Origin: an uncultured Solibacteraceae bacterium
GTDB lineage: Bacteria > Acidobacteriota > Terriglobia > Bryobacterales > Bryobacteraceae
Direction of reading: 5' to 3'
DNA: 33,553 nucleotides
Assembly: GCA_964608645.1 (NCBI GenBank)
Contig: CAZSQK010000092.1
Span: 1-33,553 of the forward strand
The position numbers were made by a program, and so were the translations under genes. Shown piece by piece: positions 22,589 through 29,516 of the stretch. The notes under the pieces were generated by a model. That model saw only the letters and a program-made list of their open reading frames with translations, did no database searches and was not told where the DNA came from. The stretch's first letter is position 1. Every line of letters begins with the position of its first letter.

Positions 22589-25264
<2,676 letters not shown>

Positions 25265-25409
25265 GGATATTTTTATTATAAAGGCAGATCGCGGAGTGCT
25301 GGACGGGCGCGTTCCTGCGGGTACAATGTGGTCATGATCCGCCAGCGATATGCTGGAAGTTGCAAGGCGGAGTTCTATCGTATAACAGTAATGTTTCGGG
25401 AGGATTCTC

Positions 25410-25628
25410 ATGGTCGAATGTCCAGTGTGCGACGGCAAGATCGACGTTGATGAAGAAGACGTCGACGAAGGCGACACCATCAGTTGCGATGAGTGCGGCG
25501 CGGCGCTGAAAGTCATCGGTACGGCTCCCTTGGAATTGGAATCGGCGGAAGAGGCCGAGGAAGAGGACGAGGACGAGGAAGGTTTCCTCGAGGAGGAAGA
25601 GGAAGAGGTGGACGAGGATTGGAAGTGA
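25410..25628 (+). CDS. LysW-family zinc-ribbon amino-group carrier-like protein with extended poly-acidic tail (ends EDWK)
   Basis: 72 aa. GGGAGGA Shine-Dalgarno 7 nt upstream. CPVC-x17-CDEC zinc ribbon, then ALKVIGTAPLELE (compare Thermus LysW …ELEVVGLDPLRLE…EDWGE). Very acidic tail EEAEEEDEDEEGFLEEEEEEVDEDWK. Confidence 0.7.
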   Translation: MVECPVCDGKIDVDEEDVDEGDTISCDECGAALKVIGTAPLELESAEEAEEEDEDEEGFLEEEEEEVDEDWK

Positions 25629-25687
25629 AGCAGCGGACGTGCGCAACGAAACCATGGGCCGCCGCGTCCAAGAGAGCGGAGGGTCAG

Positions 25688-26047
25688 ATGCGGAAAATGG
25701 TGGCAATAGCGGCGGCGGTCCTCCTGATCTCGGTGGCCGGGTCGTTCGCCCAGGAAAAGAAGAAGAAGGGCGAAGAGACCACCCGTTCCGTGCAGGGCGC
25801 AGTCTCCGCGGCTGACGACTCCGCCGTGGTCGGCGCGGTCGTGAAGTTGAAAAACACCAAAACCTTGCAAATCCGCTCCTTCATCACCAAGGAGAACGGA
25901 ACGTATTACTTCCACGAATTGAGCCCGGATGTCGACTACGAGCTGCAAGCCGACTACCAGGGCGCGTCGAGCGGGCCCAAGACGCTCAGCTCTTTCGATT
26001 CGCGGAAAAGCGCGACGATCAATCTGAAGCTGAATCCGAAAAAGTAA
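25688..26047 (+). CDS. Small secreted carboxypeptidase-regulatory-like (beta-sandwich) domain protein
   Basis: 119 aa from MRKMVAIAAAVLLISVAGSFAQ (signal peptide). Motif VVGAVVKLKN…ENGTYYFHELSPDVDYELQADYQG resembles the N-terminal domain of the two TonB receptors in this window. Confidence 0.6.
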   Translation: MRKMVAIAAAVLLISVAGSFAQEKKKKGEETTRSVQGAVSAADDSAVVGAVVKLKNTKTLQIRSFITKENGTYYFHELSPDVDYELQADYQGASSGPKTLSSFDSRKSATINLKLNPKK

Positions 26048-26128
26048 CCGTCCGACCACCGCGTTCAGAACGGGATCGGCGGCGGCATCCCGCCCGGGAG
26101 CGCCCATGCCGGCAGAATGGCGCGCAGT

Positions 26129-26499: not shown

Positions 26500-27618
26500 T
26501 CACTCCGCCCGCAGGGTCACCGTGCGATCGAGCAGCGCGTTCAGACCTCCGACCACGGTGATCTTCTCCACCTTATCGGCGATCTTCTCCAGCGTCTCGA
26601 GCTCCTTCAGGCGCACCAGCAGAGGATTATCCTCCATCAGCTTCGCCGTGTTGAGCAGCGACCGCGTGGCGGCGGTCTCCTCGCGGCGGCGGATCAGGTT
26701 CGCCTGCGCCTGCTTCTCCGCCGTCACCACCTGGTTCAGGATCTCCCGGATGTCTCCGGGCAGGATGACGTCCTTGAGGGCAATCGCCCCCACCCGCACG
26801 CCATACGCCTCCATCTCGCGGCGCACTTCCGCCGACACCGCTTCGTCGATGTCCGCCTTCTCCGCGAGAGCCTCTTCCAGTGTCCGCTTGCCGAGCGTCT
26901 GCCGCACCGCGATCTGCACGGCGCGGTACAGGTGCTCGTTCACGTCCTTCACGCCCGACCGGGCGAGAACCACGTTCACGACTTCGTACACCGCCGAAAC
27001 GTTCACCCGGACGGTGACTTTGTCCTTGGTCAGAATCTCCTGACCGGACACCTCGACCGTCTGGCGGCGCAGCTCGATCACCTCGACGCGCGGCGCCGTG
27101 ACCGCGCTCCAGAAGCCGTACGCTCCCGGCCCCAGCTCGCGGACGACGCGCCCGTCGATGTGCAGCAGCCCGCGCTTTCCTTCGTCCACCACGGCGAAGG
27201 CCGCCAGCGACTCCCGGCCCAGACGCGCCAGCGGCGCCAGCAGCCGCTGCGCAATTTCCGGCTCGGCCCGCGCATCGACGATCTCGAAGGAGATATCGAC
27301 GGGACCGCGCCAGAAGATCGCGCGCGTCCCCGGCCCGATGACCCGCGACAGGCGGCCATCCAGCCACACGAGGGCCACCTGCGAGTCATTGGTCTCCACG
27401 ACCGCGAAGTAGCGCGCGGCCAGCTCCGGCCGCTGCTTGAGAATGAAGTCCGCCCACTCCGTCGACACGGCGAGCGCGCGGACGTTGTGGCGCTCCAGCA
27501 CCACGCCGCGGCCCAGCGTGAACATCCAATGCTCTCCAGGCGGGAGAATCTCGGCGAAGCGCTGGTTGCGGATGAGCAGAACGCGCTCGTTGTCGCCGAC
27601 TAATACACGGCGGAACAT
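26500..27618 (-). CDS. SPFH/band-7 (stomatin/slipin-like) domain protein, no obvious TM anchor
   Basis: 372 aa. AAGGAGG Shine-Dalgarno 8 nt upstream. C-terminal half is a canonical SPFH core (GQEILTKDKVTVRVNVSAVYEVVNV…TLGKRTLEEALAEKADIDEAV…VGAIALKDVILPGDI) with a coiled-coil tail. The N-terminal ~150 aa look like a degenerate duplicated SPFH beta-domain. Confidence 0.8.
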   Translation of the reverse strand: MFRRVLVGDNERVLLIRNQRFAEILPPGEHWMFTLGRGVVLERHNVRALAVSTEWADFILKQRPELAARYFAVVETNDSQVALVWLDGRLSRVIGPGTRAIFWRGPVDISFEIVDARAEPEIAQRLLAPLARLGRESLAAFAVVDEGKRGLLHIDGRVVRELGPGAYGFWSAVTAPRVEVIELRRQTVEVSGQEILTKDKVTVRVNVSAVYEVVNVVLARSGVKDVNEHLYRAVQIAVRQTLGKRTLEEALAEKADIDEAVSAEVRREMEAYGVRVGAIALKDVILPGDIREILNQVVTAEKQAQANLIRRREETAATRSLLNTAKLMEDNPLLVRLKELETLEKIADKVEKITVVGGLNALLDRTVTLRAE

Positions 27619-27854
27619 GATGACATTACCTCCTTGGTTCGGACTTACGGTTGAATGAGCTCCTCAGGCCTCGCCCCGCGACTTCGCCGCGGGCCCTCCC
27701 AGAGCAAGCCGAGAGCACAGCAACCTTCACCGTGCGCGCACAGCCGGCAGTTTCAGAAGGGGCACAGAGCGGCGCATTCGCCGCCGCGGACCGCCGAAGC
27801 GGTTGCGGCCGGGAACGAAGCCTGATTCGCTCGGGTTAATGCTGCTTTACAGGC

Positions 27855-27927
27855 AGCGGATAGCGGGAATCGAACCCGCAACCAATAGCCCATCGGGCCG
27901 TCGCTCTACCCATTGAGCTATATCCAG
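27855..27927 (-). tRNA. tRNA-like gene, 73 nt, anticodon GAU (Ile) by position but non-canonical anticodon arm; possible pseudo-tRNA
   Basis: Minus-strand sequence CUGGAUAUAGCUCAAUGGGUAGAGCGACGGCCCGAUGGGCUAUUGGUUGCGGGUUCGAUUCCCGCUAUCCGCU. Acceptor stem pairs 6/7 (C1·C72 mismatch, U2·G71). Good D-arm (GCUC-AAUGGGUA-GAGC). Perfect T-arm (GCGGG-UUCGAUU-CCCGC). The anticodon stem ACGGC/GCUAU has one mismatch, and the loop CCGAUGG lacks the universal U33. CCA is not encoded. Confidence 0.55.
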
Positions 27928-28039
27928 GTGGGAGCGGAAGGAGCCGGTCATCGCCGGCATGCGGTTCCTCAGCGAGGCCGCACCAGCGAGATATCTTGAA
28001 TCTCGGCTATAGGCGATCATCGGTTTTTTCCTCCAGCTC

Positions 28040-28114
28040 AGACAGGATACCCCACATAATTGTGGTGGTCAAGTAAAAAGTGTGTGGATAAGCTGTGGAA
28101 ATACCTGTGGATAT
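28040..28114. promoter_or_regulatory. Cluster of DnaA-box-like motifs (three direct TGTGGAWAW repeats at 11-12 bp spacing plus a CCACA-TAAT-TGTGG palindrome)
   Basis: TGTGGATAA at 28083..28091, the exact complement of consensus TTATCCACA. TGTGGAAAT at 28094..28102. TGTGGATAT at 28106..28114. Palindrome CCACATAATTGTGG at ~28052..28065. Lies in the 195-bp intergenic gap between the DHS-like gene stop and the tRNA-like gene. Confidence 0.35.
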
Positions 28115-28122
28115 TGCGGTGC

Positions 28123-29385
28123 TCATTTGACGGCCAGCGGATAGCGCAAACTCGCCTCCAGCCAATCGCGGTTGGCGCGGACGGCCTCGGTCAGTTTCGC
28201 GGTCAGCGCCTCGCGCGACTCGAAGAGGCGGTAGCCGGCGCGGTCCCGCAGGTAGCCGAGCGCCCTCGGCTCGCGGGCGAAGACCTCTTCCTCGCCCTCG
28301 ACGGCGACCATGTCCGCGTACCGCCGCCGATTGTCCAGCAGCGCCTTGACGAGGAACGGCATCACCAGCGAATAATCGGCCTGCATGCTCTCCGTGGTTT
28401 GCAGGTACGTGTCCTTATCGACCTTGCCCCAGGTGACGGCCTCGGCCGGAGGGCACGACGACAGCGACCCGTCGGTCACCGGCGCGGTCACGATCTGCAC
28501 GTCGAAATGATACCCGCGCACGTCCGGCAGGCCGAGCACCTGCCCCAACGCGGGCTCCGGTTGCAGATTGTAATTCTTGGGCACGCCGCCGCCGAGAATC
28601 ACGGTCGCGAGCGCGTGCGCATGGTGATCGAACAACCCCCAGCGATGATACGCGCAGGCCTCGAAGACTTCGGCGTGGAGATCGAGATCGAAGCCGTAGG
28701 CGTCGATCAGCCCCGCCTGCTTCATGGCCCATAGTTTCATCGAATTGAGAAAGACGCTGCCATCGCCGGGGGCGCCTACGAAGATCGGAATGGCGCGCCG
28801 CCAGCAGGTGGCGAGCAGCCCCGGTTCGATTCCGTTGTGCTCTTCCTGCGCGCTGTAGAACTTCCCGAGCAGGTAGCGCATTTCCGTGCCGGTCATCTTG
28901 CGCTGAAATTCGGGGCGCGCCAGGACCGCGCTGACGAAGCGGTCCTGGTCGAGCAGAACGCCTTCATCGAACGCCATGTCGGTGACCCGGATGGTGCCTT
29001 CGTCGCGCAAGGCGGCGTCGTCGCTGTTGATCGAGACCTCGTGGATCGGACCGGAGCGATAGGCGTCGAGGCTGCGGTGGCCATCGTGGTAGCAGACGGC
29101 GTCGGTGGTGCTGAGATAGGCCACCCAGCCGGTATCGAGCAGGGGAATCAACCATGCCTGATGCTGCCCGGACACCGTGACCGGCCCCGATACGGACAGA
29201 GTCAGGGGGCAGCCCATCCCGATGGCGCGGTCGAGGATCTGGTAAATGCGCCGCAGATAAGCGCCGCCGAAGGCGGGCAGGCAATGATTGAACAGGTCGC
29301 CCAACGTGACGCACTCATCCACGCGGCGAACGCGAACCGTGCGGCGCGGACCGGCGCCGTTCGAGGGGGTTTCAATCGACATCAT
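28123..29385 (-). CDS. Deoxyhypusine synthase (DHS) family protein (bacterial DHS-like/homospermidine-synthase-like)
   Basis: 420 aa from MMSIETPS; the ORF extends 20 codons further 5'. Motif CPPAEAVTWGKVDKD matches the DHS active-site lysine context (EAVSWGKI in eukaryotic DHS, as I recall). GGGVPKNY NAD-binding-like motif. Overall length is typical of the family. Confidence 0.75.
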   Translation of the reverse strand: MMSIETPSNGAGPRRTVRVRRVDECVTLGDLFNHCLPAFGGAYLRRIYQILDRAIGMGCPLTLSVSGPVTVSGQHQAWLIPLLDTGWVAYLSTTDAVCYHDGHRSLDAYRSGPIHEVSINSDDAALRDEGTIRVTDMAFDEGVLLDQDRFVSAVLARPEFQRKMTGTEMRYLLGKFYSAQEEHNGIEPGLLATCWRRAIPIFVGAPGDGSVFLNSMKLWAMKQAGLIDAYGFDLDLHAEVFEACAYHRWGLFDHHAHALATVILGGGVPKNYNLQPEPALGQVLGLPDVRGYHFDVQIVTAPVTDGSLSSCPPAEAVTWGKVDKDTYLQTTESMQADYSLVMPFLVKALLDNRRRYADMVAVEGEEEVFAREPRALGYLRDRAGYRLFESREALTAKLTEAVRANRDWLEASLRYPLAVK

Positions 29386-29516
29386 TTTGACGATAACAGA
29401 GGACTCGGCATGCACCTCCGCCGGGAATTGCGACAGACCGCACATCGGGAAATATCCCGAAGCGGATCGGCCGCGAGAGAGGAATATACTCGGGAAAAAC
29501 CTAGGAGGGTTTACAC

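Follow-up and report, generated by a model that had tools for sequence, protein, structure and literature searches.

Gene content of the window

The window is the whole stretch of DNA that was analysed (33,553 nt of contig CAZSQK010000092.1). The region of interest lies between two genes:

26500-27618, minus strand: slipin (SPFH/Band_7) gene, which follows the structured RNA in all relatives examined
28123-29445, minus strand: deoxyhypusine-synthase-family (DS-family) gene, with its stop codon 8 nt before the distal DnaA-box-like 9-mer

The DS-family protein was 72-86% identical to Bryobacterales/Solibacteraceae MAG proteins (Acidobacteriota). Pfam annotation of the contig gave sulfatase, TonB-type outer-membrane proteins, peptidase M1, cytochrome oxidase, pyruvate dehydrogenase E1, cation-efflux transporter, slipin, the DS-family protein, beta-helix protein, YkuD and DUF711. 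Gene orientation switches at about 29480, with minus-strand genes to the left and plus-strand genes to the right (two same-species Logan contigs). The 1172-codon ORF carrying pyruvate dehydrogenase E1 (22589-26107, minus strand) is over-extended at its 5' end; inside it, public calls place LysW-type zinc-ribbon and CarboxypepD_reg genes on the opposite strand (L081 7482-8119).

The DnaA-box array

Three head-to-tail 9-mers resembling the DnaA box occupy the gap from the stop codon of the DS-family gene to the T-tract of a sigma-70-type promoter:

28106-28114, minus strand: distal DnaA-box-like 9-mer ATATCCACA (8/9), starting 42 bp upstream of the -35 hexamer
28094-28102, minus strand: middle DnaA-box-like 9-mer ATTTCCACA (7/9), separated by 3 bp from the distal and by 2 bp from the proximal box
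28083-28091, minus strand: proximal, perfect DnaA box TTATCCACA (9/9), ending 10 bp upstream of the -35 hexamer

Boxes were scored against the DnaA-box consensus TTATCCACA (TTWTNCACA), which may not be the Bryobacterales' own box. On the plus strand the proximal box reads TGTGGATAA, the exact reverse complement of TTATCCACA; the first-pass annotation had placed such a box at 28083 and was accurate to the base. It had also described 7/9 and 8/9 boxes following at 11- and 12-bp intervals, and these are present (plus-strand forms TGTGGAAAT at 28094-28102 and TGTGGATAT at 28106-28114). Box starts are 11 and 12 bp apart, leaving spacers of 2 and 3 bp (GC and GGT), and the compact triple spans 32 bp in all. 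Counted from the start of the -35 hexamer, the boxes lie at -19, -30 and -42, with scores of 9, 7 and 8, respectively. Read along the minus strand, the order is the DS-family stop codon (28123-28125), 8 nt, ATATCCACA, GGT, ATTTCCACA, GC, TTATCCACA, CACTTTTTAC, TTGACC, ACCACAATTATGTGGGG and TATCCT. The genes neighbouring the array are all on the minus strand, in the same reading direction as the boxes. The intergenic stretch from the tRNA-like gene (27855-27927) to the DS-family stop codon measures 195 bp, as annotated earlier. Its supposed AT-richness applies to about 28000-28119 (44-45% GC vs 63% for the window) but not to the remainder.

The objection that TGTGGA is merely a frequent word in this genome was checked within the window, where 12 matches were found vs 10.8 expected; the word is not over-represented. 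The longer pattern TGTGGAWAW occurs four times vs 0.45 expected, and three of the four occurrences fall within the array. The whole window holds four sites with at most one mismatch to the DnaA-box consensus, two of them in the array. Three TCCACA at the array spacing are expected 2e-6 times per window and 5e-4 times per 8-Mb genome, and 774 kb of related Bryobacterales DNA contained no further pair of boxes scoring 7/9 or better with a 2-3-bp gap. With the word not enriched, an expectation this low and no double box elsewhere in the 774 kb, the DnaA-type cluster is genuine and far beyond chance.

Viral contigs (IMG/VR) were scanned with the pattern TCCACA-N6-TCCACA-N5-TCCACA only, leaving the upstream positions unconstrained. 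At least 120 loci were found (L083-L202), with 95 distinct arrays among the matches listed. In these 95 arrays the three unconstrained positions before TCCACA were T in 78%, T in 89% and A/T in 82% of cases, which is the DnaA consensus. Perfect TTATCCACA made up 42% of the boxes in the arrays listed, and high-GC examples use TTGTCCACA. Since the free positions spell the DnaA consensus, matches with this geometry are DnaA-box arrays as a class, and the array in the window belongs there. A counter-point is that two of the three boxes in the window start with A, vs 11% among the phage-array boxes listed. The phage arrays listed have three to eight or more head-to-tail boxes, often with GG or GGG spacers and often followed by an inverted box; their neighbours include terminase, head-protease, helicase-loader, clamp, HNH and methylase genes.

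Promoter and inverted repeat

Relatives were found through slipin (SPFH/Band_7) homologues, which gave eight further lineages and, with the window, nine. The promoter region comprises:

28073-28082, minus strand: T-rich tract CACTTTTTAC; a T-tract stands here in most relatives, at the upstream edge of conservation
28067-28072, minus strand: -35 hexamer TTGACC, kept as TTGAC(C/A) in all nine lineages
28052-28065, minus strand: inverted repeat CCACA-ATTA-TGTGG (CCACA-TAAT-TGTGG on the plus strand, there followed by TGG), within the promoter spacer
28044-28049, minus strand: -10 hexamer TATCCT, with TAnnnT in relatives at 17-18 bp spacing

A consensus scan of 1.2 kb gave one sigma-70-like site vs 0.2 expected, directly downstream of the boxes. 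The predicted promoter is TTGACC-17-TATCCT, with a predicted transcription start at about 28037. The -10 hexamer varies among lineages (TATCCT, TATACT, TATTAT, TATTCT, TAATCT, TATGAT) with T1, A2 and T6 constant. Such variation fits a working promoter. No terminator-like sites were predicted in the scanned 1.2 kb, including the stretch after the DS-family gene and that between the RNA and slipin.

All nine lineages keep the arms CCAC-N6-GTGG between the two hexamers, in the 17-18-bp spacer (at the same position in L242-L252), and the repeat is a candidate operator for some regulator. The first-pass annotation had grouped this CCACA/TGTGG palindrome with the DnaA boxes. The palindrome is indeed present, but it does not hold as a DnaA feature: it is found in lineages that have no DnaA boxes and is therefore separate from the cluster.

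A structured RNA with a tRNA-like module

Between the promoter and the slipin gene, a structured RNA of about 400 nt was found in nine Bryobacterales lineages (window 27657-28034, minus strand; L242-L253). Its parts are:

27936-28034, minus strand: RNA 5' domain, a three-way junction with helices 1-4, beginning a few nt past the predicted start (~28037)
27855-27927, minus strand: tRNA-like cloverleaf module (ARAGORN 'Ile GAT'; Rfam tRNA model 45 bits)
27657-27832, minus strand: RNA 3' domain, closed by a long-range helix of 14 bp with 8 covarying pairs

The nine-lineage alignment gave a consensus structure of 90 pairs in 15 helices, on which 96.1% of cells are paired. Compensatory changes were seen at 26 pairs vs 10.9 +/- 2.3 in shuffled alignments, and none of 500 shuffles reached 26. 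Control registers slid by 1-3 columns gave 3-8 covarying pairs each.

The D and T arms of the tRNA-like module are invariant and the anticodon loop varies among orthologues. GAU is found in four of the nine, CAU, GAC, CGU and AAU in one each, and one orthologue has a 6-nt loop. The copy in the window has a C1xC72 mismatch and C33. A decoding tRNA was rejected because the anticodon is not constant, because of the C1xC72 mismatch and C33, and because the module is embedded in a larger conserved RNA. Rfam 15 holds no family for the structured RNA; the search returned the tRNA match and a sub-threshold YrlA match (21.7 bits, gathering score 69). Whatever the role of DnaA, the structured RNA looks like a new RNA family. 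An anticodon-arm pattern scan for the tRNA-like module found none in viral contigs and 39 metagenome loci, all chance matches, an expected outcome since this arm is where the element varies.

Same-species comparison was made with two Logan contigs (L081 and L082), the only matches to the exact DS-family protein; a single T-arm SNP in L082 is all that sets them apart from the window. This C-to-T substitution, at about window 27868 in the T stem, makes a G-C pair G-U and preserves pairing. It is the sole difference between two same-species population samples over about 520 nt.

The structured core stops about 40 nt ahead of the slipin start codon, with no terminator predicted between them, and for this reason the RNA is most simply read as the leader of the slipin mRNA. 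The leader would possibly be processed at the tRNA-like module. Slipin is the probable protein-coding target of the promoter.

A 57-codon ORF (27847-28020, minus strand) with a GGAGG Shine-Dalgarno sequence, ATG and a conserved MIAYSRG start overlaps both the tRNA-like module and the 5' domain, and gene callers annotate it in some relatives (63-74 aa). It is unlikely to encode a small protein: GC3 is 0.64 vs 0.78-0.89 in real genes, the ends are variable (37-74 aa) and covarying helix changes alter the amino acids. A short leader peptide might still be made from this ORF; GC3 and covariation argue for RNA.

In bacteria, tRNA-like Y RNAs have a link to rtcB operons. At one locus (L251 398-1405), RtcB RNA-ligase and RF-1-domain genes lie on the opposite strand about 1.6 kb upstream of the tRNA-like RNA. 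This proximity, seen at a single locus, may be a coincidence.

Absence of the boxes in relatives

In the eight relatives, a gene-free stretch of about 390-580 bp precedes slipin and aligns with window 28075..27619. The genes flanking the RNA-slipin unit differ in every lineage; the RNA and slipin stay together. Conservation does not reach past the T-tract that precedes the -35 hexamer; the boxes lie beyond this limit. A double box at the orthologous promoter was found in none of the eight relatives, each of which has at most a single 7/9 match (TTAATCACA in L247, TTATGCAAA in L242). With the three boxes present in this lineage only, the array is best read, against the eight relatives, as gained in one lineage. 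Since the boxes are missing from all eight relatives, any function must be recent and not essential to the RNA-slipin unit.

Other phased repeats stand at the same place in some relatives. Just upstream of -35, tandems of the form TTAATCnnn-2 bp-TTAATCnnn were found in L245 (TTAATCAAA-CA-TTAATCGTA, about 2485-2504) and in L247 (TTAATCGAA-AA-TTAATCACA, about 2503-2522). In L243, TCTCCAAGTTT occurs twice with an 11-bp period in the same promoter-upstream zone. With TTAATC and TCTCCAAGTTT tandems in this position, the zone may serve other factors or phased DNA bending. It seems to be a place where phased sites are gained and lost, the DnaA triple being the version of this lineage.

These tandems bear on the reading that the repeats in the window are sites of another regulator, an OmpR/PhoB-type or CCAC/GTGG-repeat factor, and that their match to the DnaA box is coincidental. 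We consider this unlikely. The 11-bp-period tandems of the relatives (two TTAATC, two TCTCCAAGTTT) do suggest a general upstream activator region, and OmpR/PhoB-type response regulators bind direct repeats with an 11-bp period. Moreover, CCAC, which forms the half-site of the inverted repeat kept in the promoter, occurs in every repeat, and the CCACA copies all keep helical phase (steps of 12, 11 and 22 bp). However, the likeness to the DnaA box spans all nine positions (9/9, 8/9, 7/9), and arrays of the same spacing elsewhere carry the full DnaA consensus. In addition, a dimeric binder of inverted repeats is ill-suited to head-to-tail sites, and response-regulator sites are usually even in number.

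The surroundings of the DS-family gene bear on a different reading, in which the array is a non-functional by-product, either of a recent 11-12-bp tandem duplication at a rearrangement junction or as a remnant of phage DNA. In 80 related genomes the DS-family gene is flanked by other genes, which puts the array exactly at a synteny breakpoint; none of these 80 GTDB loci carries the tRNA-like gene, slipin or any TCCACA cluster. The array is lineage-specific, and similar arrays are common in phages. Against this, the units differ where DnaA boxes tolerate change and keep TCCACA intact, and the spacers differ as well (GGT and GC), which is not the pattern of fresh slippage. No phage genes were found on the contig, and the array region had no match in phage and plasmid collections (BLAST). 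A consensus DnaA triple would also bind DnaA whatever its origin. This reading is improbable.

Origin, DARS and iteron readings

The first-pass annotation listed oriC among the possible roles of the cluster. Neither dnaA/dnaN nor other origin-linked genes are present in the Pfam annotation of the whole 33.5-kb contig. In favour of an origin, unwinding modules of origins contain tandem boxes of this kind (PMC8287927), cumulative GC skew along the contig bottoms out at 28-29 kb, and genes switch strand from minus to plus near the same place (about 29480). The skew minimum, a local one on a 33.5-kb contig, coincides with this change in gene orientation and may simply follow it. Only three good boxes are present, and two of the four window sites within one mismatch are here. 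An AT-rich unwinding element is missing: GC falls no lower than 44%, over about 120 bp, and this stretch is made up of the boxes and the promoter kept by the box-less relatives. The sequence has no GAT/TAG-type DnaA-trio run; the permissive NAN-trio criterion (PMC8287927) is satisfied trivially by the window and carries no information. One flank of the array is coding 8 nt away and the other is the promoter and RNA gene kept by the eight box-less relatives. The differing neighbours of the RNA-slipin unit in every lineage mean that position is not conserved either. Lacking dnaA/dnaN, an unwinding element and conservation of position, the oriC suggestion is unsupported, and a chromosomal replication origin, or part of one, is very improbable here.

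A DARS core has three boxes, one of them oppositely oriented beside a tandem pair. DARS was rejected, as the three strong boxes are all head-to-tail; the sole inverted CCACA scores 6/9, lies 27 bp away in the promoter spacer and is kept in box-less relatives. An iteron-type plasmid or phage origin was likewise rejected: rep, integrase and phage genes are absent from the contig, no phage or plasmid DNA matched, and the repeat unit is a DnaA box, not a 17-22-bp iteron.

A proposed role of DnaA at the promoter of the RNA-slipin unit

The likeliest reading of the array is a regulatory or titration site for DnaA specific to this lineage, rather than a replication origin. In E. coli, ChIP-seq and mutagenesis showed that in vivo binding of DnaA takes place at box pairs with a gap of 2 or 3 bp; a double box typically combines one consensus and one 7/9 box, and adding 1 bp between them abolishes binding (PMC11317965). 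The authors noted that this spacing mirrors the low-affinity arrays of oriC (PMC11317965). DnaA is both a transcriptional activator and a repressor (PMC8203912), and non-oriC DnaA-box clusters regulate neighbouring genes in B. subtilis and affect initiation timing (PMC3245932). The array in the window has the 2-or-3-bp same-orientation spacing (GC and GGT) of the E. coli rule (PMC11317965). Its proximal box adjoins a predicted promoter (10 bp from TTGACC) that is conserved in nine lineages, with the RNA directly after it. DnaA is the best candidate because the nine-position match occurs three times, the spacers are 2 and 3 bp, and arrays of the same geometry carry the DnaA consensus. The earlier identification of the 9-mers as DnaA boxes thus gains support from one 9/9 and two near-consensus sites in one orientation at double-box spacing.

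We tentatively propose, with slightly less than even confidence, that a DnaA oligomer on the triple box modulates the RNA-slipin promoter. DnaA would nucleate on the proximal consensus box and extend cooperatively over the two weaker boxes. The resulting oligomer would lie on one helix face from about -46 to -77, with box centres at about -50, -61 and -73. The bound promoter would produce the ~400-nt structured RNA with its tRNA-like module and then slipin, and occupancy would couple RNA-slipin expression to the level or nucleotide state of DnaA. The effect could have either sign, activation from upstream of -35 through contact with RNA polymerase or repression by spreading toward -35. Such spreading would come at higher occupancy. 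The next in-phase CCACA stands 22 bp further along, in the promoter spacer. The array may also block read-through from the terminator-less upstream DS-family gene, and every copy of it would sequester a few DnaA molecules.

This last effect could be the main one. The array would then bind DnaA chiefly for initiator control, as a small titration or datA/DARS-like element that hardly affects the promoter. DnaA binding is supported by the same sequence features as under promoter control, the array fills all the space between the stop codon and the promoter T-tract, and its lineage-specific presence fits an element untied to the downstream gene. Non-oriC DnaA-box clusters are also known to affect initiation timing (PMC3245932). 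However, three boxes titrate very little DnaA, which would make the role minor, and at 10 bp from -35 some transcriptional effect is hard to avoid. The function of datA requires an IHF site. Control of the DARS type needs an inverted box in the core, whereas the strong boxes here run head-to-tail. Titration as the main role appears quite unlikely. Among the roles suggested by the first-pass annotation, oriC falls for want of origin genes and an unwinding element, but a DnaA-regulated promoter or a small titration site fits the anatomy. Its remark that this is not a typical dnaA-regulon location is fair; the site nevertheless occupies a standard promoter-upstream position.

Regulation of the promoter by DnaA can be extended to a more specific and rather doubtful proposal, namely that the array is a recently acquired DnaA sensor on the promoter of an undescribed structured RNA preceding slipin in Bryobacterales. 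In this lineage, if this is true, the status of the replication initiator would govern both a tRNA-mimicking RNA and a membrane-scaffold protein. To our knowledge, DnaA regulons are known for few model bacteria only, and none for Acidobacteriota. An isolated triple box by a defined promoter provides a test of the 2-3-bp double-box rule outside Proteobacteria. The gain, visible against eight box-less relatives, gives a view on how new DnaA-controlled promoters arise. The structured RNA upstream of slipin and the phage DnaA-box arrays are possibly of wider interest than the site itself.

Comparison with known systems

OmpR/PhoB-type sites (Pho boxes) are direct repeats with a 10-11-bp period, located at or just upstream of -35 and usually in pairs. 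The core of the repeats in the window differs from theirs, and the repeat unit here is the DnaA box. B. subtilis clusters hold many more boxes, over hundreds of bp, vs a 32-bp triple here. Like the array, they consist of intergenic DnaA boxes outside oriC, and they can regulate neighbours and buffer DnaA (PMC3245932). Phage arrays (IMG/VR) share with the window at least three boxes, 2-3-bp spacers and an intergenic position. Unlike the window array, they stand in phage genomes, often have 4-8 boxes, and show no homology to the window beyond the boxes.

The low-affinity arrays of E. coli oriC and the tandem boxes of basal unwinding modules (PMC8287927) are head-to-tail, 2-3 bp apart and anchored by a consensus box, as here. 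This shared geometry would support a DnaA oligomer on the array. In contrast to oriC arrays, the site in the window comes without an unwinding element, a DnaA-trio run, further boxes, origin-linked genes or positional conservation. Likeness extends to the E. coli double boxes at purH, polA, mioC and DARS2 at mutH (PMC11317965), which have the same orientation and lie 2-3 bp apart, combine one consensus box with a partner carrying 1-2 mismatches, and stand outside oriC upstream of a transcription unit. The array differs from them in having three boxes instead of two and an acidobacterial host, in that its binding of DnaA is predicted from the DNA, and in what follows it, a structured RNA and slipin in place of a nucleotide or replication gene. 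DnaA sites with several boxes outside the origin are already known as a kind, of which the array would be a new instance.
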